36,627 bases of DNA from Candidatus Woesearchaeota archaeon (GTDB lineage: Archaea; Nanobdellota; Nanobdellia; Pacearchaeales; GW2011-AR1), in contig CAZRBZ010000001.1 in assembly GCA_964598515.1 (NCBI GenBank), forward strand, positions 1 through 36,627, given 5' to 3'. The notes under the pieces were generated by a model. That model saw only the letters and a list, made by a program, of their open reading frames with translations. It was not told where the DNA came from and did no database searches. Numbering within the stretch: position 1 is the stretch's first letter; every line of letters begins with the position of its first letter. Below, one piece after another: positions 1,260 through 36,519 of the stretch. The position numbers and the translations under genes were made by a program.

Positions 1260-3086
1260 ATGTTTAAGAGTAAAAAGGGACAGGTGACAATCTTTATAAT
1301 TTTGGCTATAATTGTTGTTGTGGCAGGAGTTAGTATTTACTTATTTAGGGATACAATTATTACTAATAAAATACCTGTAAGTATTGAGCCTGTGCAAATT
1401 AATTTTTTAAATTGTATTGAAAGGGGAACTTTGACAGGGATTTCTATTTTAGAATCTAAGGGAGGATATATTGAGAATCCAGATTTTGTTCCTGGTTCTG
1501 TTTATATGCCTTTTTCTTCCGAATTAAATTTTGTGGGAACTCAAATCCCATATTGGCATTATATCAGTGGAAATAATATTGAAATGGAACAAATCCCAAG
1601 TATCGATGAGATGAATAAACAATTAGAATCTTATTTGGAGAATAAATTAATGAATTGTAATTTTGAAATATATGAAAATCAGGGTTATGAAATTGAGGCA
1701 GATGTTCCAAAGGTTGATGTTAAAATAAAAAATAATAATGTTCAAATTGATGTAGACATGGATTTATCTGTTAGTTTTGAAAATGAGATTTTTTTAATGA
1801 AAGATTTTTCTGTTGAAATTGATTCTTTGTTGGGGAATTTATATGGGGATGCAAAAAAAGTTTATGAATTGGAACAAGAAAATTTATTTTTAGAGAACTA
1901 TTCTATTGATGTTTTGTATTTGTATGCTCCTGTTGATGGTGTCGAATTAAGTTGTTCTCCTTTATTTTGGAATGTTGATGAATTTTATAATAATTTTTCG
2001 GAAGCTCTTGTTGCAAATATTTATTCATTAAAAAATAAGGGAAGAGAGGATGATTATTTTGCACTTAATCTTCCTGTTGATTCGGAATTAAGTTTTGTGA
2101 CTTCAACTGAATGGCCTAAAACATTTGAGATTACTAATGCGGATAATAATATTCTTGTTGCTAAACCCGTAGGTAACCAAGAAGGATTGGGAATTTTAGG
2201 ATTTTGTTATGTTCCGTATCATTTTGTTTATAATGTGCGGTATCCGATTTTAGTACAAGTGACTTCTTTTGGAGAAACTTTTCAATTTCCAATGGCAGTA
2301 ATTATAGATAGAAATATGCCGAGAAAAGGAAAAGAGGGTTCATCTTCTGTTGGAGAAGTTTCAGACATTTGTGAATATAAAAATAATAATTTATTGATTA
2401 ATTTGTATGATTCTGATTTAAATCCTGTTGAGGGGGAAATTTCTTATGAGTGTTTTGGAGCTAACTGTCATATTGGGTTTACGGAAAATGGTCAATTAAA
2501 TGGATTTTTTCCTCAGTGTGTTAATGGAAATGTTAAAATTTCAAGTGAAGGATTTAAAGATAGTTATGTGAATACAGGAATCAATGAGGAAGAGGTCGTT
2601 GTTATTCTAGATAAAGAATATGAATTGGAAGTTGAACTTTACACAGATAACAAATTATATTCTGGAAAAGCTATTGTAAATTTCATTGGTGAGGATTCTT
2701 CTTTTTCTTTGGTCTATCCAGAACAAAAAGAAGTTATTTTAAGTGAAGGTAAATATGATCTTGAAACTTATTTTTATAAAGATTCTTCTTTGAAGTTTGA
2801 GGAGACAACTACAGAATATTGTACTGACATTCCTAGTTCTGGAATTAAGGGATTTTTTGGATTTGAAGAGGAAAAATGTTTTGAAACAGTAATTCCTGAA
2901 CAAGAAATTGATAATGTTTTAGTTGGCGGGGGAAAATCTGATTATTATTTTATAGAACAAGAATTAAAAAATTCAAATAAGTTGATATTAAGAGGGAAAG
3001 AATTAAATGTTCCTAACTCTCTTGAGGAATTAACTCAAAATTATGAATTAATTGAAAGTCAAATATTAGGGGTTGAATTTAGATGA
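1260..3086 (+). CDS. large extracellular protein with type IV pilin-like (class III) signal peptide
   Basis: The N-terminus MFKSKKGQVTIFIILAIIVVVAGVSIYLF has a basic stretch, a KGQ motif, then an uninterrupted hydrophobic helix, as in archaeal prepilin signals. The stop overlaps the start of the giant gene (ATGA at 3083-3086). Confidence 0.75.
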   Translation: MFKSKKGQVTIFIILAIIVVVAGVSIYLFRDTIITNKIPVSIEPVQINFLNCIERGTLTGISILESKGGYIENPDFVPGSVYMPFSSELNFVGTQIPYWHYISGNNIEMEQIPSIDEMNKQLESYLENKLMNCNFEIYENQGYEIEADVPKVDVKIKNNNVQIDVDMDLSVSFENEIFLMKDFSVEIDSLLGNLYGDAKKVYELEQENLFLENYSIDVLYLYAPVDGVELSCSPLFWNVDEFYNNFSEALVANIYSLKNKGREDDYFALNLPVDSELSFVTSTEWPKTFEITNADNNILVAKPVGNQEGLGILGFCYVPYHFVYNVRYPILVQVTSFGETFQFPMAVIIDRNMPRKGKEGSSSVGEVSDICEYKNNNLLINLYDSDLNPVEGEISYECFGANCHIGFTENGQLNGFFPQCVNGNVKISSEGFKDSYVNTGINEEEVVVILDKEYELEVELYTDNKLYSGKAIVNFIGEDSSFSLVYPEQKEVILSEGKYDLETYFYKDSSLKFEETTTEYCTDIPSSGIKGFFGFEEEKCFETVIPEQEIDNVLVGGGKSDYYFIEQELKNSNKLILRGKELNVPNSLEELTQNYELIESQILGVEFR

Positions 3087-6000
3087 AAGCAAATAAATTA
3101 ATTTTAGGATTGGTTTTATTAGTTGGAGTTTTAGTATTTGCTTCTGCTGCTTATACGCATTCTACTTTCCAAGCAACTTCTAGTGGAACTAGGAGTGCTT
3201 TCGAAAAGGATATGGCGGATATTAGTTTTGATTCTTCTATGTGTCAAGAAGGTCAAGATTTTATTGTTCAAATTGCGCCTTTCGGTTGTGAACCCGCTGT
3301 TGTTAGAAGTGATTTATTGGAGGAACAAGATGTTCCTGTGTTTTGTAAATTGCAAGCTGTTAAAATAAATCCTTTTATTGATATAACTGCTATTAATTCT
3401 ATTGATATTAATATTCGAGGAGCATATCCTGAAGGAGTTAAAAGTGTGGGGTTTACTCCAAGTTATGATGCTTTGGGAAAGAATAGAAAATTAAATAATT
3501 TGCAGTGGGATGAAATTGGTTATGCAACAATTGTTTTGAGACAAAATCCTAATGAAAGTTCAATGTCTGATTTTGTAACTGGAAATTTAAGTGCAACATT
3601 TAGATATGATTTGGAAAATGCTTTTGGTCTTAGGAAACATACTTTTTATCTTCCTCTAATGGAGGACAATGAGTTTGATAGGTCTCTTGGGCAATATGCT
3701 TTTTTTAATAAGATGGGTTATCTGAGGGCAGAAGATGTTACAAAAGATTCTGCTTCAATTGCAATTTATTCTGGAAGATATGAATCTCCTTTTGGTAAGA
3801 GTAGGGAAGGAGAAATAAATAGACAAAGAATTGGAATGTATAATTTACAGGTTGGACAACAAACAAATAAAATTTATTTACCTGGTTTTGATTGTTTTTC
3901 TGCTGTTCAGTTTAGATTAGAAAATATTGAATTTCAAGATACTAGAGTTCGATTTAATATCAATTCGCAAATTTTTGAAGTTAAAGAAGATGAAAATTTT
4001 CTGGAGGGTAAATGCCGTGTTACAGATATTGAAAAAACTGGTTTGAATCAAATTGTTAAAGTGTCTTGTCAAGAAGATGAAGGGAGAGATACTTTTGATT
4101 TGAGAATTAGTCCAAAAATTAAATTGGAAATTAATGGTGTTGAAGGAGAATATGCAGTTGGAGATTATTTGTTTGAAACAGATGAAAGCAAACATGCTTA
4201 TTTAGGTTTTGTTGGAAGCCAGAGTTATGAAGCTAAAGATTTAGTTGCTTATGTGGTTATTGCGGATGCAAAAATGGCCAAATTGGGAGAGAGTGAAATT
4301 TTGGCTGCAGGAAAGTTGGGAGAAGCAAATCCCAATGAAAAGAATTTACTTGAAGAGGCTAAAAAAATTACAAGAATTTCTATTAAATTTTATAAATGGC
4401 TTATGGATGGTAAACATTTTCAAAGATTAAATTATTCTGAGAGTAAAATTATTGGTGGAACAAAGGTTGAAATAATTGGTTTTGGTTCTGAAAGTGATTA
4501 TCCTGTTACTTCTAAGATTGAAGAGTATTATGGTAAGGCTTTGGACGATTATGATTATATTTTTTCTAATTATCAGGGAGAAATTTATCCAGAAGATCAA
4601 AAAATTAGTTTAGGTGAAAAATCAGCTTATGCTAAAATGCTTTTGGCAAGGGATACTTCGCAGAAAAAAGATTTGAAGTTTTTTTGTGATGAGTTTGAAA
4701 GTAGTTATCCTGATTCTGAATTAGAAAGAGATTTTTGTGAGAATTTAATTTTATTAAGTAATCAGGGCGTTTCTACTAAAGATTTGATGATTGAGGGAGA
4801 TATTAAAAGAATTTCTTTTGAGGGGGTTTATCAACCAAGTATTGAAGATTATGGTATTGTATTGTATGTCCGAGAGAAGGGGGGAAATGTAGAATCTCAT
4901 GAACTTAGAAAGGAACAGATTCTATATCTTGATGAAAGTGGACAAAATTATGTACAGTTAGTTTCAATTACTGATGAGAATACAGTTGTTTTGAATTTTA
5001 ATATTGAAGGGAAAACAACACTTGCTAGAGCACAAGATATTTTAATTTCAGGGAATCGGGGTTTGAAAAAAGAAATTTCTAAAACTTTTGGAAATTATAC
5101 TTTTACGATTCATGATATTTATTTTGAGAGAGTTGCGAAAGTTTCTGTTGAACCAAGTATAAATTATGCTGGAAGTGAGATTGATTTTAATTTTGCAGTT
5201 GGAATTGAAAAAAGATTAATTCAACTTTCTCCTGAAATGACTGAAAATGCAATTGATAAACTTGATGATACTATTGAAACTTGGGAAAGTATTTCTTCTA
5301 CTTTGGGAGATACAGTTGATGTGCTTGAAAAAACTTGTTTGGCTGTTGGAGGGTTTTTGACTTTGAAGAATTTGTTATTTAATTCTGGAGGAGAATCTAT
5401 TGCAAGACAGGAAGTTATGAGTGGAAATGGGGGGTGGTATGAAAGATGTGCAGATATGGTTGCTGTGGGAGATTATAGGTCTGAAGGAGAGTGTTTGCAA
5501 GATAAGGCAGGTAATATTGATGATGAAGTTAATTTGTTGGCGGAGATGTTGAAAAGCCAGAATGAAGAGATAAAAAATATTCAAGAAGATGAAGAAGTTA
5601 GTCAGAGTCAAGGACTTTTTGGAACTAATGTTGTGAATACAACAAAATTAGTTGAAAAGTATTTACCTAAGGTTAAAGCTTCATTGAGGAAGAGAGGAGA
5701 ATTTATTGAGGATCCTACTGGAAAAGAAAAGGGGATTAGTGTTTCTTCTTTGGAAATTATTTTGACACCTGAGTATTGGAATAAGAATTTATTTAGTTTT
5801 GATTTATTGAAAAAGATTGAGTTGTATGCAAATATATTAAATAAAGGGGGGATGGATGTTTCTCAAACAAAAAGCTATAAATCTAAATTATTTATTGTCG
5901 TTAAACAATTAGATATAAATTCTAAAAATTCTTTGGATGTTAATAATTGGGCAAGTAGCGTTGGAATAACTTCTGATTATATTGATTTTATTAAGATTGG

Positions 6001-9000
6001 AGATAATGTTCAAGAATTGCCTTATGATGATTTGGTTTTTGAAGATTTGAAATTTTCAGAGGTTAAAGAATATGATGTGAATAAACTCTCTTCGCATGTT
6101 TATGTTTTGAATCAACTTTCTCAATTAAGTGGAAGATATTCTGATATGGACGTTAAGGGATTTATTGATGATTTGTACAATAATAGTTTTTTGAGTGATG
6201 CACAATATGATGATTTTAAGGGTGAAATAGGAACATCTCATGAAGTTAGTGAGTTGAATGTTATGTTACCGATTGTAAAAAATACTCCTGTTAAACTTTT
6301 ACAGGGTTCTGATGGAAGGAAATATATTTTAATTTTAGAGAAGTCTAAAACGGATAAGTTGAATATTTTGGTAGATGGGAATTATAAACCTTTTATTTAT
6401 AATAGAGATGGAAATAGATTGTCTATAAAAAATATTTCAAAGGATGTGAGAAATATATTTTGTAAGAAATATGATTCTAGCAGTTATAAGAATTCATATA
6501 AAAATCCAGAAATTAAGTATTATGAAACTGATCCTTACAAAGGTCTTCCTTCGGTTGTTCCTTTTGATACTAAAGACGGTTGGTATGCTTATGTTGAACA
6601 AAATATTGATTTTATGGGAGAAGTGAGATCTTATGATAAATCTGCGAGAGTAAATAGTTTTTGGTTATGTAATGTAGGAAATAATGGATTAGAAGAATTT
6701 AGTAAGGGAAATACTGGAGATGATATTTGTCAATTAATTAATTTAGGAACAGGTCAACCTTATAATCAATTTTCTGGATTGAAAACAAATGAGGCTGCAA
6801 GATTAATTAATCAGGCAGTTAATGCAATTGAGCAGGCTTCTAGAGCGTATAAGGATGGAGTTAAGGTTGTTGAAATAAATAATCAGCGAATTGAAGTTGG
6901 CAGTCCTGCAATAAGTAGTGCTTTAACTAAATGTGAAGATTATATGTCTCCTAAAGATTGTAATTTATTGTTCAATGTTTGTGATCCAGTTATTTGTCCT
7001 TCGAGTAGATGTGATTTTGGTGGACAGTATCCAGTTCAAGATGTTATTCAATCTGGAATTATTGGAAGTTTACTTTTATGTTTACCTAATTATCATGAGG
7101 ATATTTACATGCCAGTTTGTTTGACTGGAGTTAAATCTGGATTGGATAGTTATTTGTCTGTTATGAAATCTTATCAAAGTTGTTTACAAGAAAGTTTGGA
7201 TACTGGGAGTACTGTTGGTATTTGTGATCAAATTAATAGTATTTATATTTGTGAATTTTTCTGGAGGCAGGCTTTACCTTTAGCTGAATTAACTTTGCCT
7301 AAAATTGTGGGAGCAATCACTGGTGAAAATACTCGTGGAGGAGGAGAATATTCTAGTTTGACTACTGCATGGGACAATGCTAAAAATTCAGTTAACTTCT
7401 TTACTGAATTTTATGCAATTAATTCTTTTAATGCATTTAAGGCAAGAAGCCAGGAAGAGATTGGTAGTGAGGTTTGTCGAAGTTTTATTTCATTTAATTA
7501 TCCTGAAGGTCAAGGGATTTTAGATAGTTTAACTATTGCAAATAGTCCCCCTCAATACAGTGGTAATTTTGAAGCCATACCTTTTACCACTACAATTGTT
7601 CCACCTGTATCACAATATAAGGTGTTTTATCATATTTATGCTGGGGAAGATCAGGGGGCTTATTATAAGGTTTATTTAAGGGGTGGAAGTGGAAGTTCAT
7701 ATTATCAAGATACTTCTTCAGGAAGAATGGTTGCTTCTGGATATATTCCTGTTGGAGAGTATGCAACTGGAACAGAAGACTTTATTGCTCCTGAAGGTTA
7801 TAAAGAATTGTGTATAGCTGTTAATAATGAAGAAGAGTGTGGATTTAAAGAAGTGTCTACTAGTTTTGCTTTTGATTATGTTCGGGACCAATCTAGGCAG
7901 TCTCAAATAGAAAATACAAATATTAAATCGCAAGATGAATGTATTTCTGGGAGTGCCAATATTTATGGTTTGTTGAATTTAAATGTTCAAGAGGGAATTG
8001 CGAACACTGTTGACCCTGAAATTTATAATCAAGGTATTGTGAGAATTTGTGCGACGGATAATCCTGGTAGTTCTGATCCTTATTTAGGTAGTGAAGATCA
8101 GAGATGGATAGATGTTGGTTATTGTGGTGATTCAAATATTAGGTGTTGGATTGATCAGGAAAGTATTGACCGAGCTTTGGAATTTCAAACTTCTGTAAAT
8201 GAATCTTTAGAAGAATTGAGTGAAAAATTTAAAGAAAATTTAGAAAATGATAAGGGTTATTTGAATCCTGAGCAATTTGCTGAAAAGATTGACAACATTA
8301 CTAAAGAGAAAAATCGAGATAAAAGATTTGATATGATTAAAGAATTGTTTGATAAAGTTTATTTGAATAATCATAAAGCTTATTTATATTATTTACGGGC
8401 AGGGATTTATGAAGAAATTGTTCATGAGTTGTTTGCTAAATTGGATACTGGGGAGAAAAAAGGAATCAGAGAAGGTAGGCCTACATATGAAAATGAATAT
8501 AAGACTGTGCTAGATATTGTAACTGCTGAAGGTTTTGAATCGGGAGAGTTTGAATTTCATGATGCAAGGGCAGCTTTAAGGATGACATCAAATCAACCAA
8601 ATGTTTGTTATAAATTTATAAATAATGGGTGGGATTATGGTTGGTATTGGACTTTGGAATGTAATAAAATTGGAAGTTATAGTTCTTATGCAGAAAAAAA
8701 TATTGATTGGATAAGTGTAAATGAACCACTTGTTAATCCTTATTCTAGAAATACATTAACCAAAACTAGTAAAGAATTTATACCCAAGTTGAAGAAAAAA
8801 AATTATTTGGAGGGAATAGATTTGTTAATGAAAAGAGCAAAATTGAATAAGGAGGGGGGAATTGTAAATTCTCTTGGGCTTGCTAAAACATTTATTACAA
8901 TTGGAGACCTTATCTTTGATCATAGGGGACGTTTTTCGGAGGGAAGTGAATCACAACCGAGACTTCAATTATATTTTCAATATAGAGGGGAAAAATGGAA

Positions 9001-10558
9001 TTATTATCTTGGGCCATATGGAGCTTCTGAGGATTCAGATTGGATGGATCTTGATGTTTTTCCTGAAGATATGGAGTTATCTCAGAATGAAACTTTATTT
9101 TTAAAAATTATGGGAGATTTGAATTTTCTTGAAGGTGCAGCTGTTTTATTTGGAGATGTTTCATTAAATGAGTTGGGTAGTTTTGTAAAACAGACTCGTA
9201 TTGGGAAATGGACTTATGCATCTGCTTTGGAGGAAATTGAAAAATTTGGTTCTGGAACTTATGAAGATATGGGAGTTAAAGAAATGGTAGATGGATTTTA
9301 TGAGGATGGTTTATTGAGTAAGGAAGATTATATTAATTTTATTGATGAAGAACAGGATATTGGTATTTTTGGGAAACAGGGAGGCTATATTTGGACTGGC
9401 ACAGAGTTTGAAGCTAGAGAAACTTGCCCTATGCCTGAAGAACCTAGTGAAGAAGTTTTAAAATTGGGTAATGCTCGTGAAAGGGTGTTAAAAATAGTTG
9501 ATGAGTTAGTTGGGAAAAAAGCTTATATTGGGGTGAAGGGTTGTTTTAGTGCTGTTGAATATGTTTATGAGAAAGCAGGAGTTACTCATAGTTGTGTTTA
9601 TTCTGATAATGAAGGTAGGAGTTATTCTATTGGGGATGGAATTAGGATAGGTATCGATAAAAAATTGGTTAAAGGAAAATGGGTAATTATTTATCAAATG
9701 GCAACATATCCCACTAGAGATTGTAGTTTGAATAAAAAAGAAGGAGAAAATTTACCTATGTCTGATAAACTTGCTGAAATTCAACCAGGAGATATTTTAA
9801 GTTATGCTTATGATGATGATGATGGACATAATGTTATTTTCATTAAGTGGATTGATTCTGATATTTTGAAAGCAGAGGTTTTTGATTGGAATGGTCCAAG
9901 AGTGAATGGAAAGAAAACTTATCGAATAACTAATGTTTTGTTACAAGATGATGAACATCCGGTTTATATGTATTGGAAACCAATTATTTTGGGACAGGCT
10001 ACTGAAGAGACAGAAGCAGATGAAGTTAAAATTTCTTCCTTAGAGATTGAAGAGGAAGAAGAGATTGTTATTCAAGATACTACTGCTCCCGAGATTGTTG
10101 TACCTGTCGAAATTAATTATGTTGAATATACTTTAGATTCTGCAATTGAAAAAGCTGGAACTTTGAAAGGAGATTATTCTAGTTCTCAAGAGAATCAAGA
10201 TTTTATGGATGCTTTGTTGGCACAAGGAATAATTAATAGAGTTGAATTTTATAAGTATAGTAATAAATGGAAAAGGTATTCCAAAACCCCTCAAATGAGT
10301 GATTTGAGAACATTATTATTACTTATTAAAAAGAATGCAGGATTAGAAAATTCTATTGAAAAGATTCCTACATATGAATTTACTGGAGATGAAAGAGCTG
10401 TTTTTAATGAAGGAGAAGTATGTAGTAATTGTGGTGATGATGAAGATTGGTATACTCTCGGTTTTGGAAATCTTTGTGATGAGGAAGAATGTTTTGTTTT
10501 GGGAATTGCTTTAGGAGAGAATTGTTGGTATGAAAATAAAGAATGTTTAAAAAAATAA
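3083..10558 (+). CDS. giant (2,491 aa) cysteine-rich secreted protein with C-terminal NlpC/P60-like module
   Basis: Uninterrupted 7.5-kb ORF. Signal peptide MKANKLILGLVLLVGVLVFASAAY. Many Cys clusters (e.g. CEDYMSPKDCNLLFNVCDPVICPSSRC). Acidic linker EIEEEEEIV. Cys-rich C-terminal tail. The 4-nt overlap with the upstream gene implies translational coupling. Confidence 0.9.
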   Translation: MKANKLILGLVLLVGVLVFASAAYTHSTFQATSSGTRSAFEKDMADISFDSSMCQEGQDFIVQIAPFGCEPAVVRSDLLEEQDVPVFCKLQAVKINPFIDITAINSIDINIRGAYPEGVKSVGFTPSYDALGKNRKLNNLQWDEIGYATIVLRQNPNESSMSDFVTGNLSATFRYDLENAFGLRKHTFYLPLMEDNEFDRSLGQYAFFNKMGYLRAEDVTKDSASIAIYSGRYESPFGKSREGEINRQRIGMYNLQVGQQTNKIYLPGFDCFSAVQFRLENIEFQDTRVRFNINSQIFEVKEDENFLEGKCRVTDIEKTGLNQIVKVSCQEDEGRDTFDLRISPKIKLEINGVEGEYAVGDYLFETDESKHAYLGFVGSQSYEAKDLVAYVVIADAKMAKLGESEILAAGKLGEANPNEKNLLEEAKKITRISIKFYKWLMDGKHFQRLNYSESKIIGGTKVEIIGFGSESDYPVTSKIEEYYGKALDDYDYIFSNYQGEIYPEDQKISLGEKSAYAKMLLARDTSQKKDLKFFCDEFESSYPDSELERDFCENLILLSNQGVSTKDLMIEGDIKRISFEGVYQPSIEDYGIVLYVREKGGNVESHELRKEQILYLDESGQNYVQLVSITDENTVVLNFNIEGKTTLARAQDILISGNRGLKKEISKTFGNYTFTIHDIYFERVAKVSVEPSINYAGSEIDFNFAVGIEKRLIQLSPEMTENAIDKLDDTIETWESISSTLGDTVDVLEKTCLAVGGFLTLKNLLFNSGGESIARQEVMSGNGGWYERCADMVAVGDYRSEGECLQDKAGNIDDEVNLLAEMLKSQNEEIKNIQEDEEVSQSQGLFGTNVVNTTKLVEKYLPKVKASLRKRGEFIEDPTGKEKGISVSSLEIILTPEYWNKNLFSFDLLKKIELYANILNKGGMDVSQTKSYKSKLFIVVKQLDINSKNSLDVNNWASSVGITSDYIDFIKIGDNVQELPYDDLVFEDLKFSEVKEYDVNKLSSHVYVLNQLSQLSGRYSDMDVKGFIDDLYNNSFLSDAQYDDFKGEIGTSHEVSELNVMLPIVKNTPVKLLQGSDGRKYILILEKSKTDKLNILVDGNYKPFIYNRDGNRLSIKNISKDVRNIFCKKYDSSSYKNSYKNPEIKYYETDPYKGLPSVVPFDTKDGWYAYVEQNIDFMGEVRSYDKSARVNSFWLCNVGNNGLEEFSKGNTGDDICQLINLGTGQPYNQFSGLKTNEAARLINQAVNAIEQASRAYKDGVKVVEINNQRIEVGSPAISSALTKCEDYMSPKDCNLLFNVCDPVICPSSRCDFGGQYPVQDVIQSGIIGSLLLCLPNYHEDIYMPVCLTGVKSGLDSYLSVMKSYQSCLQESLDTGSTVGICDQINSIYICEFFWRQALPLAELTLPKIVGAITGENTRGGGEYSSLTTAWDNAKNSVNFFTEFYAINSFNAFKARSQEEIGSEVCRSFISFNYPEGQGILDSLTIANSPPQYSGNFEAIPFTTTIVPPVSQYKVFYHIYAGEDQGAYYKVYLRGGSGSSYYQDTSSGRMVASGYIPVGEYATGTEDFIAPEGYKELCIAVNNEEECGFKEVSTSFAFDYVRDQSRQSQIENTNIKSQDECISGSANIYGLLNLNVQEGIANTVDPEIYNQGIVRICATDNPGSSDPYLGSEDQRWIDVGYCGDSNIRCWIDQESIDRALEFQTSVNESLEELSEKFKENLENDKGYLNPEQFAEKIDNITKEKNRDKRFDMIKELFDKVYLNNHKAYLYYLRAGIYEEIVHELFAKLDTGEKKGIREGRPTYENEYKTVLDIVTAEGFESGEFEFHDARAALRMTSNQPNVCYKFINNGWDYGWYWTLECNKIGSYSSYAEKNIDWISVNEPLVNPYSRNTLTKTSKEFIPKLKKKNYLEGIDLLMKRAKLNKEGGIVNSLGLAKTFITIGDLIFDHRGRFSEGSESQPRLQLYFQYRGEKWNYYLGPYGASEDSDWMDLDVFPEDMELSQNETLFLKIMGDLNFLEGAAVLFGDVSLNELGSFVKQTRIGKWTYASALEEIEKFGSGTYEDMGVKEMVDGFYEDGLLSKEDYINFIDEEQDIGIFGKQGGYIWTGTEFEARETCPMPEEPSEEVLKLGNARERVLKIVDELVGKKAYIGVKGCFSAVEYVYEKAGVTHSCVYSDNEGRSYSIGDGIRIGIDKKLVKGKWVIIYQMATYPTRDCSLNKKEGENLPMSDKLAEIQPGDILSYAYDDDDGHNVIFIKWIDSDILKAEVFDWNGPRVNGKKTYRITNVLLQDDEHPVYMYWKPIILGQATEETEADEVKISSLEIEEEEEIVIQDTTAPEIVVPVEINYVEYTLDSAIEKAGTLKGDYSSSQENQDFMDALLAQGIINRVEFYKYSNKWKRYSKTPQMSDLRTLLLLIKKNAGLENSIEKIPTYEFTGDERAVFNEGEVCSNCGDDEDWYTLGFGNLCDEEECFVLGIALGENCWYENKECLKK
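9500..9960 (+). other. NlpC/P60- or CHAP-like papain-fold hydrolase module inside the giant protein
   Basis: The pattern GVKGCFSAVEYVYEKAGV ... EIQPGDILSYAYDDDDGHNVIFIKW matches the NlpC/P60 layout (G-x-C-S/F-G nucleophile helix, then PGD-hydrophobic ... H-V/I-hydrophobic). Cys codon at 9542-9544, His codon at 9827-9829. Confidence 0.5.
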
Positions 10559-11374
10559 TTATTTCTTTATGGGAATATTAATATATTGTCCAACCATTAA
10601 TTTTGTATTTTTTGCATTATTAAGTTTCATAATTTTATTTGCATCTTTTCCTGTTCCATAAATTTCTTCTGCAATTTTCCAATAAGTGTCACCAGATTTT
10701 ATTTTATATTGTTGTGTTTGTATCATATTTTTTGTAATAGTTTTATTTGGAGTTGATTGTTCTAAAATCCATTCATAAATATCGCCTTGTTTTACAACTA
10801 CGTTTTTTTCATTTCCAATTCTTGGTTTTTCCAAAGAATATTTAAAATTTTCAGTGTCTACAAAATAGAAGTCTAATTTTCCAGGAGTAGAATTTTCTCT
10901 TTCTGCTATTGCAAAAGTTTTATTTTCTAAAGAGATTGTTGCTATGTAAAATTCTTGCCCTTTTTCTGTTGTAATTTTTTTATAAATTATGTCTCCTTTA
11001 GATTTGTCGAATTTAGAATGTTTTGGAATTTCTTTGTAGATTGTTAAAATCAAATCATTCATTTTAATTTTTTTTGGAATAAATTCATCTTTTGCTTCTC
11101 TTGTTGGTATTGGGTTCCCATATTCAAATACGTCGGAAGTATATTTTGATTTTCTTATTTCGAATCCTAAAGGGTTTGAATTATCGTCTGCTTCTTTAAA
11201 ATTATATTCTTCTTTAAATATTCCAACATCCAATTTTTTATAAGGTATATCATTTTGGGTTATTTGTTCTATTTTAATTCCTTTATATAGATGATTCTCT
11301 GCAAAAGGTCTTTTTGTTGCACAACTTGAAGTTAAAATTCCAGTTGTTAATAGATAAATTAATCCTTTTTTCAT
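10559..11374 (-). CDS. lipoprotein with C-terminal LysM domain
   Basis: N-terminus MKKGLIYLLTTGILTSSC has a lipobox-like LTSSC. The C-terminus YKIKSGDTYWKIAEEIYGTGKDANKIMKLNNAKNTKLMVGQYINIP fits the LysM consensus. Its stop codon directly abuts the stop of the giant gene. Confidence 0.8.
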   Translation of the reverse strand: MKKGLIYLLTTGILTSSCATKRPFAENHLYKGIKIEQITQNDIPYKKLDVGIFKEEYNFKEADDNSNPLGFEIRKSKYTSDVFEYGNPIPTREAKDEFIPKKIKMNDLILTIYKEIPKHSKFDKSKGDIIYKKITTEKGQEFYIATISLENKTFAIAERENSTPGKLDFYFVDTENFKYSLEKPRIGNEKNVVVKQGDIYEWILEQSTPNKTITKNMIQTQQYKIKSGDTYWKIAEEIYGTGKDANKIMKLNNAKNTKLMVGQYINIPIKK

Positions 11375-15580: not shown

Positions 15581-16411
15581 TTAATTAGAAAATTTTAAAC
15601 CTTTTGCTTTTTTTATTAAACCTTTTTTGTCTTCAGGAATATCTTCTCTTTTTGCTTTTTTTAGATATGATTTTATTTTTTTTATTTTTTTATTTTTTGA
15701 TAACTTTTTGTTTGTATGTGGGCCTCCAATACATCCACCATCACAAAATAAACAATCTAAAAATTTGATTCTTTTTTTTGGATTTTTTAAAAATTTAATA
15801 ACTTCTTGAATGCCATCAATCTCTATCCATTCGTTTTCATGAATGACTTCTTTTATGTGGGCTGTTTTTGCCAATGCTCCTGAGAGAGGATAAATTTTTG
15901 TATAGTCATTATAAAATTTATCAAATTTTCCTTTTTTGAAAAGAGGTTTTTTAATTTTATATTTTTTAAATAATTTTTTTAATTCTTCGTAATCAATTAC
16001 ATAGTCAACATATTTACAAGATTTAGCTTCGATTTTTTTGAAGTCACATGGAGAAATAAAAATAATTTTATGTTTTGGAAAATGTTTTCTGCAAATTTTT
16101 CCCATAGAAACCATTGGGCTATCAATTTTTGCTAAATTATTTTTATATTGTGGAAATCTATTTATAATTGTAGCAACAATTCCTGGGCAGGTGGAAGAAA
16201 TAAGCATTTTTTTAGAAGTTTTTAATTTTTCATTATATTCCCTATTAATCATTTTTGCACCAAAAGTTAATTCAACAACTTTATCAAATCCTAATTTTTT
16301 TAAACGATGAATTATAGAAGGGTAAGAAAAATCTACTACAAAACTTGGAGCAATCATTGCAACATATTTTCCTTTTAGTGGAAATTTTAAATTAGCAACA
16401 TCTTTTTTCAT
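15581..16411 (-). CDS. [FeFe]-hydrogenase H-cluster-domain-like protein (minimal, no ferredoxin-like N-terminus)
   Basis: Three motif-like segments in the expected order: SSTCPGIV (cf. TSCCPxW), FISPCDFKKIEA (cf. MPCxxKxxE), FLDCLFCDGGCIGGP (cf. CxxGCxxGGG). Only 276 aa. Confidence 0.65.
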   Translation of the reverse strand: MKKDVANLKFPLKGKYVAMIAPSFVVDFSYPSIIHRLKKLGFDKVVELTFGAKMINREYNEKLKTSKKMLISSTCPGIVATIINRFPQYKNNLAKIDSPMVSMGKICRKHFPKHKIIFISPCDFKKIEAKSCKYVDYVIDYEELKKLFKKYKIKKPLFKKGKFDKFYNDYTKIYPLSGALAKTAHIKEVIHENEWIEIDGIQEVIKFLKNPKKRIKFLDCLFCDGGCIGGPHTNKKLSKNKKIKKIKSYLKKAKREDIPEDKKGLIKKAKGLKFSN

Positions 16412-35418: not shown

Positions 35419-36519
35419 ATGGCAAATAAAAAAATTAATTCAGAGGATTTATTTTCTTCAGTTTCTGATTCAGTTATTGAAGGAAAAAAGTTTGAAAAGG
35501 ATTTTGTTAATGTTTTGAAGATGGTTGCTCCTGGAACAAGTCTTAGAATTGCATTAGATGATTTGCTTAGAGCTAAAATGGGTGCATTGATTGTTTTTGA
35601 TAATGGTAATATTAATCCCCTTGCAGAAGGAGGGTTTAAAATCAATTCTAAATTTAGTTCTCAAAAATTAGTTGAATTATGTAAAATGGATGGGGCTATT
35701 CTTGTTTCTTATGATGCTAAAGATATTCTTTCTGCAAATACTTTGTTGGTTCCAGATAGTTCTATTTTTACTAAAGAAACTGGAACAAGGCATAAAGCTG
35801 CGGAGAGAACTGCTAATCAAGCAAATACAATTGCTATTGCTGTTTCTGAGAGAAAGAATAAAATTTCACTTTATTATGGAAAAACTTATTACCAATTGGA
35901 AAGAAGTTCTGAAATTTTAAGACGAGCTTCTGAAACTCTTCAAATTTTGGAAAAGCAAAGAGATGTTTTTGACGAATTTTTGGAAAATTTAAATTCTTTG
36001 GAATTACAACGTATTTCTACAATCAATGATGTTTGTTCTGTTTTGCAAAGAGCGGAAATCATTAAAAGAGTTGAAGCGATTGTTCAAAGATATTTGATTG
36101 AATTGGGGCGTGAAGGAATGATTGTTCGTATGAGATTAAAAGAATTAATGGGTACTTTAGAGAAAGAAGAAGAGTTAGTTTTAAAAGATTATTTTGGTTC
36201 TAATCATTCTAATTCTTTAGATATTTTGGAAAAAATGGATTTTGATTTTTTATTGGAGCCTTTGAATATTTCTAGAATATTATTTGAAGAGTTGCATGAT
36301 AAATCTGTTTCTCCCAAAGGTATGAGACTTTTAGGTAAAACTAATCTTTTAGAGAGATATGTGGATTTATTGATTGGGAATTTTGAGAATTTTAATGATA
36401 TTCTTTCTGCTAAGAATGAGAAATTGTTGGAAGTTTTGGAAAGTGAGGCAATGGTTAGTTTTTTTAGAGAGGAAATTTATAATTTGAAGGAGAAGGTTAG
36501 TTTGGGTAGGCGTATTTAA
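35419..36519 (+). CDS. disA: DisA-type diadenylate cyclase (DNA integrity scanning protein-like)
   Basis: DAC-domain motifs GALIVF, MDGAILV and TGTRHKAAER. A helical linker and a C-terminal helix-hairpin-helix-like end. 366 aa, as in bacterial DisA. Confidence 0.85.
   Translation: MANKKINSEDLFSSVSDSVIEGKKFEKDFVNVLKMVAPGTSLRIALDDLLRAKMGALIVFDNGNINPLAEGGFKINSKFSSQKLVELCKMDGAILVSYDAKDILSANTLLVPDSSIFTKETGTRHKAAERTANQANTIAIAVSERKNKISLYYGKTYYQLERSSEILRRASETLQILEKQRDVFDEFLENLNSLELQRISTINDVCSVLQRAEIIKRVEAIVQRYLIELGREGMIVRMRLKELMGTLEKEEELVLKDYFGSNHSNSLDILEKMDFDFLLEPLNISRILFEELHDKSVSPKGMRLLGKTNLLERYVDLLIGNFENFNDILSAKNEKLLEVLESEAMVSFFREEIYNLKEKVSLGRRI

Follow-up and report, generated by a model that had tools for sequence, protein, structure and literature searches.

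The window analysed here is a stretch of 36,627 nt from a Candidatus Woesearchaeota archaeon, a tiny member of DPANN (GenBank assembly GCA_964598515.1, contig CAZRBZ010000001.1), and one of its genes encodes a giant secreted protein of 2,491 amino acids (aa). In the C-terminal quarter of this protein we found a module of the NlpC/P60 superfamily with a conserved Cys, His and Asp. The assignment of fold and family taken by itself (NlpC/P60, papain-like, Pfam clan Peptidase_CA) is well supported and in our view very probably correct. For the combined statement, i.e. that the module is a highly divergent NlpC/P60-type enzyme with a papain fold, acting as a peptidase or amidase, is predicted to be active and cuts the stem peptide of bacterial murein, we estimate a probability of about 0.72; here we infer catalysis, substrate and biological role from sequence, conservation, homology, predicted fold, domain co-occurrence and synteny. 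The gene, the module and the residues in question are located as follows (AF2, AlphaFold2; ORF, open reading frame).

3083..10558, plus strand: gene of the giant secreted protein, 2,491 aa (ORF list and translation)
9410..10006, plus strand: NlpC/P60-superfamily Cys-His(-Asp) module, residues 2110-2308 (alignment A1, AF2 model, hhalign, Foldseek)
9542..9544, plus strand: codon TGT of Cys2154, predicted nucleophile (start of a helix, conservation, aligned with the DCSG Cys of NlpC/P60)
9593..9724, plus strand: beta-rich insert, residues 2171-2214, found in the archaeal module only (AF2 strands 59-92)
9827..9829, plus strand: codon CAT of His2249, predicted general base (on strand 138-149, which follows the PGD hairpin; aligned with the His of HVGIY in NlpC/P60)
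9884..9886, plus strand: codon GAT of Asp2268, candidate third triad residue (conservation, end of strand 154-159)

Identification of the module and its superfamily

The original prediction, made from the DNA sequence, had proposed an NlpC/P60- or CHAP-like Cys-His module at 9500-9960. Both peptides on which it relied, LVGKKAYIGVKGCFSAVEYVYEKAGV and AEIQPGDILSYAYDDDDGHNVIFIKWIDS, are present in the translation of 9470-9990, within the ORF at 3083-10558 of the plus strand, and its residue numbers are right: 9542-9544 reads TGT and encodes Cys2154, and 9827-9829 reads CAT and encodes His2249. The location of the predicted span is also right, while its length is slightly short, the homologous domain extending over ~9410-10006 (residues 2110-2308).

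When 1.84 billion representative proteins were searched exhaustively with a profile, 192 of them matched with E <= 1e-3, including 63 at E <= 1e-30. In the alignment of 31 module sequences (termed here A1), which has a mean column identity of 32%, the columns C45 (Cys2154), Y53, Y64, G127, H140 (His2249), F144, W147, A155 and D159 (Asp2268) are invariant. The two residues whose conservation was crucial to the original prediction are near-invariant also in a broader sample, Cys being kept in 111 and His in 112 of 113 full-length module copies from homologues. Position 2268 is occupied in the same copies by Asp (97), His (7) or Glu (1), i.e. by one of the three in 105, and in one degenerate copy (P0174) Cys, His and Asp2268 are lost together, with Ala, Asn and Ala in their places. 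The insert of 45 residues that follows the Cys helix is flanked by Cys2171 and Cys2214, both of which are found in 94 of the 113 copies and neither in 12, with only 7 discordant cases. Because the two cysteines occur together, we suggest that they probably form a disulfide that closes the insert.

To compare the module family with known enzymes, we used hhalign and a reference alignment composed of E. coli MepS and 54 non-identical NlpC/P60 domains from viral contigs. The comparison yielded a probability of 62.7% and a P-value of 7.2e-5, with the N-terminal helix, Cys, PGD and His in register, against a probability of at most 2.1% and P >= 0.023 for control comparisons (4 reversed and 20 column-shuffled). 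The NlpC/P60-like order of elements and the Cys/His pattern of the original prediction are borne out by this result. A family of compact bacterial relatives bridges the module and the reference: it matches the NlpC/P60 alignment with a probability of 96.0% (P 4.1e-9) and the module family with a probability of 99.7% (P 2e-26). A search of the PDB with the profile of the compact family returned five matches, four of which are NlpC/P60 structures (4fdy, 7cfl, 8v3w and 3h41; E 0.2-1.1), and in the alignment with 4fdy the Cys of the compact family falls on the DCSG motif, its PGD on AGD and its His on the catalytic His. The PDB search with the profile of the module family gave only plastocyanin noise, on the PGD...H stretch, and a word-indexed protein search with the module alone returned a single partial Nanoarchaeia protein, which begins just before the His.

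In Pfam, the 31 module sequences gave sub-threshold matches to Amidase_6 in 4 cases (best E 0.0012) and to NLPC_P60 in 3 (best E 0.049). Among 52 distant relatives NLPC_P60 was matched by 6 (best E 6.3e-7), and individual distant relatives gave single matches to PG_binding_1, PG_binding_3 and Glucosaminidase. Ten relatives scanned singly match NLPC_P60 over the same Cys-to-His stretch with 12-19.5 bits, versus a cutoff of 23. The original prediction had pointed to the curated families PF00877 (NLPC_P60) and PF05257 (CHAP); the module does not reach the gathering threshold of the former (23 bits), and the latter is absent from every Pfam scan of the module, its family and its relatives, so that the likeness to CHAP exists at the level of fold only. 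Because it lies below Pfam's own threshold, the module is a member of the superfamily and not of curated PF00877 or PF05257. Judging from the sequence motifs, the NlpC/P60 branch appears to be favoured over CHAP: the surroundings of the Cys (C-x-x-A-x-x-Y-V-Y-x-x-A-G-V) and the P-G-D before the His are of the NlpC/P60 type.

The compact relatives are stand-alone lipoproteins of 130-250 aa, which possess a lipobox and lack the 45-residue beta insert. Their motifs are G-x-x-V-L, C-W-D, V-Y-x-x-A-G, P-G-D-W and H-S-x-I-F-x-x-W-x-D, of which they have G-x-x-V-L, C-W-D, V-Y-x-x-A-G, P-G-D and, as H-(S/N)-x-I-F-x-x-W-x-D, the last one in common with the module. They are found in Campylobacterales, Bacteroidota, Gammaproteobacteria, Neisseriaceae and Bdellovibrionota; the query of the bacterial genome scan for this family was an alignment of 8 closer sequences. 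The members P0188-P0250 (loci L092-L171) come from Sulfurimonas, Sulfurovum, Psychrobacter, Acinetobacter, Kingella, Alysiella, Bacteriovoracaceae and others. The compact lipoproteins are effectively an uncurated NlpC/P60-related family, which lies below the thresholds of Pfam and NCBIfam. A homologue search with the alignment of compact relatives returned only 4 proteins. A tblastn search of a phage collection with the module and one compact relative gave no match, therefore at that sensitivity the family is not of a known phage endolysin type.

The AF2 model of the module has a predicted local distance difference test score (pLDDT) of 88.9 and a predicted template modelling score (pTM) of 0.87. 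Its elements, in the numbering of the model, are a helix (22-33), a helix that has the Cys as its first residue (45-55), the beta meander of the insert (59-92), short helices, and the strands 129-135 (PGD), 138-149 (His), 154-159 (ending at the Asp), 168-177 and 185-192. The strand of His2249 comes after PGDILSYAYD, in the non-permuted order, i.e. Cys followed by His. The best matches of the model in a Foldseek search of the PDB include LysIME-EF1, PlyPy, PlyGRCS, Spr and MepS, with E 0.04-0.13 and template modelling (TM) scores of 0.2-0.4. In BFVD the top matches are almost all phage lysins, CHAP or NlpC/P60 domains and L-Ala-D-Glu peptidases (E 2.6e-3 to 3e-2, probability 0.95-1.0, TM ~0.4). 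A second model was built for a compact relative (P0210, residues 120-248; pLDDT 82.6) from an alignment that consists mostly of module sequences, and it has Cys, His and Asp on the same types of elements as the first. Its best PDB neighbours are Acd24020 (E 2.1e-3, TM 0.58), Ly7917, SagA, YkfC-like, CHAPK (TM 0.62), LytE, Tse1 and the Gsp amidase, with TM 0.53-0.62 for Acd24020, SagA, CHAPK, LytE, Tse1 and YkfC-like. Thus, the match to the NlpC/P60/CHAP clan that was to be expected from the original prediction does exist in profiles and in structure (hhalign, the bridging family and Foldseek), but it is weak when the comparison is direct.

Asp2268 may be the residue that orients the His: we regard it as the best candidate for the third catalytic position because it is invariant in the archaeal subfamily alignment A1, replaced by His or Glu in few copies, and lost once along with Cys and His. 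In hhalign the canonical third His is paired, weakly, with another residue, Asp2258 of the W-x-D motif.

The giant protein, its sisters and their gene neighbourhood

A whole-protein search with the giant protein collected 287 homologues of 1,900-3,600 aa, which, where their source is named, come from Pacearchaeota, Nanoarchaeota or an unclassified "archaeon". The identical protein is present on 8 contigs from several metagenome samples. Castelle et al. 2021 (PMC8204110) described proteins of up to 3,000 aa that possess a domain of the murein-like lytic transglycosylase type and are specific to Pacearchaeota and Woesearchaeota, a family discussed also by Vigneron et al. 2022 (PMC9723730). The protein from the window is a full-length member of this family of giant extracellular proteins (fam00969), because its scaffold of ~1,750 residues, syntenic locus, size and lineages match. 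The family is known for its SLT domain; the member from the window shares with it the scaffold, the locus and the export signal but lacks SLT according to Pfam. A possible SLT remnant upstream of the module was looked for and dismissed, as none was detected by Pfam or by eye in comparison with P0020 and P0033. The remaining parts of the giant protein are the following.

3083..3157, plus strand: N-terminal signal peptide or signal anchor, MKANKLILGLVLLVGVLVFASAAY... (read from the sequence)
3083..8332, plus strand: conserved scaffold, residues 1 to ~1750, common to nearly all family members (segment-wise phmmer)
6053-6229, plus strand: ~55-aa repeated motif, copy 1, residues 991-1049 (local alignment)
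8333..9409, plus strand: fast-evolving stretch between the scaffold and the module, with no recognised domain (phmmer, Pfam)
9176..9349, plus strand: ~55-aa repeated motif, copy 2, residues 2032-2089, just upstream of the module (local alignment)
10007..10555, plus strand: C-terminal tail, including the weak copy 3 of the motif and, at its end, a segment that contains six Cys (phmmer)
about 10121-10258, plus strand: weak copy 3 of the motif, residues 2347-2392 (family-level matches only)

The N-terminal segment, which we read as a putative Sec signal or signal anchor, is the sole hydrophobic segment of the giant protein (Kyte-Doolittle, window 19); the remainder is hydrophilic, and there are 43 Cys residues. 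In segment-wise phmmer searches each segment up to residue 1750 matches 154-163 of 250 collected proteins. Conservation drops past this point: residues 1750-1900 are matched in 64 of these proteins, 1900-2110 in 12, and the tail (2310-2491) in 27, including P0001 with 47% identity. The stretch at 8333-9409 has no Pfam match and few homologues by single-sequence phmmer, while an iterative search revealed a divergent counterpart of the region of residues 1740-2040 in 110 of 119 homologues. The iterative search on residues 1740-2112, meant to yield an alignment for a possible second cryptic domain, drifted over heterogeneous cassettes, and its alignment was not used for modelling. Copies 1 and 2 of the repeated motif align locally with a score of 69, compared with a maximum of 41 in 200 shuffles, and its consensus is ...L.G.Y.DM.VK..[IV]D..Y....LS...Y..F..E. 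Copies of the motif flank the module on both sides and could mark the joints of cassettes. The six-Cys segment at the very end (residues 2447-2491, 10421-10555; CSNCGDDEDW...CDEEECFVLGIALGENCWYENKECLKK) is conserved in P0001, and P0008 and P0071 also give matches to it.

Analysis of the C-terminal regions of sister giants reveals a variable set of domains. The module is the commonest recognisable cassette among them, being found by a module scan of whole-protein homologues in 46 of the 120 homologues listed, versus 30 of 120 for SLT, with both domains present in 5. In members that lack SLT, such as the protein from the window, the module is the only recognisable catalytic head. Representative arrangements are given below.

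P0020: SLT 2125-2212, then the module 2275-2446
P0033: SLT 2061-2172, then the module 2274-2431
P0037: the module 1900-2046, then YkuD 2741-2902
P0084: SLT, DUF1615, Amidase_3
P0107: VanY
P0064: two copies of the module
other sister giants: ankyrin, leucine-rich repeat (LRR), beta-helix, Hint, trypsin-like

SLT followed by NlpC/P60 or CHAP is the classic layout of a bifunctional lysin. VanY (P0107) or Amidase_3 (P0084) occupy the same C-terminal region as the module. Further C-terminal cassettes of P0052, P0040, P0055 and others resemble papain-fold domains (e.g. ...SYVCARFVTEVL...KKGDLVAF...GQHITIFDHYD in P0052), and the Cys seems to be missing from some of these papain-like cassettes where they lie downstream of the module.

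Genomic neighborhood analysis revealed that the giant gene lies in a conserved locus, with the order ribosomal protein S3Ae, a gene of 610 aa, the giant gene, the LysM gene, TFB, S8e and LSM. This order is kept across orthologues that are 37-61% identical, although their C-terminal cassettes differ; therefore, the cassettes have been exchanged in place. The two genes that adjoin the giant gene in the window are given here.

1260..3086, plus strand: 608-aa protein with one N-terminal transmembrane segment (ORF list)
10559..11374, minus strand: LysM lipoprotein-like protein, 271 aa, convergent with the giant gene (Pfam LysM, E 8.5e-10)

The stop of the 608-aa gene overlaps the start of the giant gene by 4 nt, and a partner of 608-614 aa is encoded upstream of the giant gene in all 4 loci examined. 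The 608-aa protein has no Pfam match; it may be a membrane anchor or a partner in export or assembly. The LysM protein has a lipoprotein-like N-terminus (...LTSSC) and its LysM domain at the C-terminus, and its gene also adjoins the giant gene in the orthologues P0003 and P0036 and is absent from the P0020 locus. LysM binds glycans that contain N-acetylglucosamine (GlcNAc), e.g. peptidoglycan and chitin. The presence of a protein of this peptidoglycan- or chitin-binding kind in an archaeon with no murein genes in view is worth mentioning. As the original prediction had noted, genes of murein synthesis (Mur) are absent from the 36,627-nt window.

Proposed function and alternative explanations

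In the mechanism that we propose, Cys2154 at the N-terminus of its helix would be the nucleophile and attack the stem peptide of murein at an amide bond. The general base would be His2249, whose strand follows the PGD hairpin, and Asp2268 on the next strand would probably orient the His. The module would be one of several interchangeable wall-acting heads (the others being SLT, YkuD, VanY and Amidase_3), mounted C-terminally on a conserved scaffold of ~1,750 residues that is exported via Sec, and would carry out an endopeptidase or amidase reaction on bacterial murein outside the archaeal cell. Acting jointly with glycan-cleaving heads and the LysM partner, it might open or break down bacterial walls, whether of a host, of prey or of dead cells, and its role could be local opening of the wall or harvesting of nutrients. 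The original prediction had placed the target in the wall or envelope of another organism. The context agrees with this idea (SLT, YkuD, VanY and Amidase_3 in the sisters, LysM next door, and no Mur genes among the archaeal housekeeping genes of the window), while the target itself is something that we, too, still infer. That the giant family degrades bacterial walls has already been proposed (PMC8204110 and PMC9723730), and killing of bacteria by peptidoglycan hydrolases from archaea has been demonstrated (PMC12352652).

Comparison with characterized systems helps to place the module. It shares with the NlpC/P60 endopeptidases (PF00877; e.g. E. coli MepS/Spr, B. subtilis LytE/LytF, E. faecium SagA and C. 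difficile Acd24020) the order of elements, namely a helix, the Cys-helix, the PGD hairpin, the His-strand and a strand with a polar residue, and, like them, it is exported and found among murein-active domains; superposition of the compact relative's model on Acd24020 and SagA gives TM 0.53-0.58. Unlike these enzymes, the module lacks the G-x-P-Y-x-W-G-G loop before the Cys, possesses two additional strands at its C-terminal end and, behind the Cys helix, the 45-residue beta insert, and is embedded in an archaeal protein of 2,491 aa. The candidate third residue also differs, as the module has Asp at His+19, whereas NlpC/P60 domains have His, Asn or Glu at about His+11. CHAP domains (PF05257; LysK CHAPK, PlyPy, LysIME-EF1, E. 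coli Gsp amidase) have the papain-like fold that is predicted also for the module and belong to the best Foldseek neighbours of each of the two models, and in bifunctional lysins they commonly stand, like the module, beside a glycosidase domain. The compact lipoproteins of Gram-negative bacteria are the closest relatives outside archaea but, unlike the module, they are stand-alone and usually have Ser at the position of Asp2268.

With respect to delivery, Tse1/Tae1, the amidase effectors of the type VI secretion system (T6SS), are papain-fold murein amidases that are brought to the wall of another cell. Tse1 and Tae1 are among the Foldseek matches of P0210, the probabilities for Tse1 being low (0.25-0.72). 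Unlike in the Tse1/Tae1 systems, there is neither a contractile injection system nor an immunity gene here, and delivery would be by the Sec-exported scaffold. The weaponised archaeal hydrolases (PMC12352652) represent the same concept, i.e. an archaeal enzyme acting on bacterial walls. Polymorphic toxins resemble the giants in combining a conserved N-terminal region with variable C-terminal cassettes at the same syntenic locus; unlike in those toxins, the downstream gene is not an immunity gene on the same strand but the convergent gene of the LysM lipoprotein. An immunity protein may be dispensable where the organism itself lacks murein.

Several observations weigh against the proposed assignment and function. 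The module from the window, used alone, has no match in Pfam (E up to 10), NCBIfam or a phmmer search of the PDB, and the direct hhalign probability is only 63%. No Foldseek match of either model reaches E <= 1e-3, the TM scores of the module are only 0.2-0.46, and its PDB matches are mixed with unrelated small beta-barrel folds. Most bacterial relatives have Ser, Ala or Gln at position 2268, and the simple hairpin register derived from the DSSP string, which is not the canonical one, puts Asp2268 opposite His+4, not His+2. Substrate and host are deduced entirely from indirect signs, no wall-binding domain was found within the giant protein, and the murein of a Gram-negative host would be shielded by the outer membrane.

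We considered four other explanations of the module. According to the first, the resemblance to NlpC/P60 is superficial, the Cys/His pattern is a coincidence and the region has a structural or binding function without catalysis; no curated database model recognises it, the Foldseek E-values are weak and many of the matches are generic SH3- or Tudor-like barrels. Against this speak the near-invariance of Cys and His over 113 copies with a mean identity of ~32%, the loss of the triad as a unit in one of them, the significance of the hhalign match relative to controls with the catalytic residues in register, and the agreement of two independent models with the papain fold in the secondary-structure placement of Cys and His, so that we consider such a coincidence hardly credible. 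Self-processing is very improbable as well. According to this explanation the module would cut the giant precursor and in this way set free or activate the cassettes at the C-terminal end, much as cysteine protease domains do in large toxins of bacteria, which would fit its position among interchangeable C-terminal cassettes bracketed by a repeated motif, and the likeness of the long conserved N-terminus and variable C-terminus to polymorphic toxins. It has, however, no Pfam likeness to known autoprocessing domains, its copy number of 0 to 2 (two in P0064, none in many proteins) fits a payload rather than a maturation device, and its closest relatives are small stand-alone bacterial lipoproteins in which there is nothing to process.

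The other two explanations retain catalysis and differ in the reaction or the substrate. The NlpC/P60 superfamily includes acyltransferases and phospholipases, and the module might accordingly be a transferase, either an acyltransferase- or transpeptidase-like enzyme that tethers the protein to the wall or lipid of the host, or a phospholipase similar to LRAT/HRASLS. In support of this function one could cite the co-occurrence of the module with YkuD, the L,D-transpeptidase by which bacteria attach proteins to their murein. We nevertheless consider it improbable, as the enzymes that match best in profile and fold are hydrolases (endopeptidases and amidases) and there is no membrane-insertion segment near the module; the acyltransferase option of the original prediction fails in particular on the order of the catalytic residues, which is Cys-then-His instead of the circularly permuted LRAT order, and gave no profile signal. 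An action on an envelope polymer of archaea, either on the isopeptide bonds of pseudomurein (as in PeiW and PeiP) or on an S-layer or surface protein of an archaeal host, we regard as similarly unlikely. A Cys-His-Asp triad is also characteristic for enzymes of the Pei/transglutaminase type. Cultivated DPANN archaea are episymbionts of other archaea (PMC8204110), which likewise fits an archaeal target. On the other hand, Pfam scans with E up to 10 detected no Peptidase_C71, transglutaminase core or pseudomurein-binding repeat (PMBR); since neither the whole protein nor the 31 module sequences match Peptidase_C71 or PMBR, the Pei-like option raised in the original prediction finds no backing. 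The neighbours in sequence and fold are murein hydrolases, all recognisable enzyme cassettes in the sisters act on bacterial peptidoglycan, and the adjacent gene encodes LysM.

Hydrolysis of bacterial murein being the reading that we prefer, a broader scheme can be put forward tentatively, although we think it more doubtful than probable: the C-terminal quarter of the giants may be an arsenal of the polymorphic-toxin type, in which murein-cleaving heads are swapped at one locus with the ~55-aa motif as joints, together with the scaffold, a membrane partner and a LysM lipoprotein, and the NlpC/P60-like head may be its commonest warhead. If this scheme were true, many lineages of Pace- and Woesearchaeota, even those without annotated SLT, would live on bacteria as episymbionts or predators and not on archaea, and the bond specificity of the head could report the chemotype of the host's wall.

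For Pace- and Woesearchaeota, the main genomic argument for bacterial hosts has so far been the presence of SLT in some giants. The unannotated murein-type head is more frequent than SLT and is the sole recognisable catalytic head in SLT-less members such as this one; therefore, the bacterial-wall hypothesis extends to more lineages. The module is also of practical use as a reagent: with ~200 residues it should be expressible, and its preference for a bond and a wall chemotype (meso-diaminopimelic acid (mDAP) or Lys, amidation) could narrow down the candidate hosts. Our results define, moreover, an uncurated NlpC/P60-related family, composed of the archaeal modules and the Gram-negative lipoproteins, which is missed by Pfam and NCBIfam. 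What appears to be new is a cryptic head that is invisible to these databases, is the commonest recognisable one in the giant family and has a compact sister family in Gram-negative bacteria: the module is not mentioned in PMC8204110 or PMC9723730, and in the searchable literature we found no paper that contains both "NlpC" and "DPANN", which is not proof of absence.

Other genes of the window

The neighbours of the giant gene in the window are archaeal housekeeping genes, namely those of TFB, TFE-alpha, tRNA-intron endonuclease, deoxyhypusine synthase, the tRNA synthetases LeuRS and AlaRS, a rhomboid protease and a DisA-like protein, together with four tRNA genes. The DisA-like protein (35419-36519, plus strand) matches the Pfam families DAC (diadenylate cyclase; 1.2e-25) and DisA-linker (3.2e-29) and is a cyclic di-AMP (c-di-AMP) synthase of the bacterial type. 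A protein of 276 aa (15581-16411, minus strand) matches Fe-only hydrogenase in the large subunit's C-terminal domain alone (E 1.6e-42), and its gene is kept near the giant-gene locus in related contigs.

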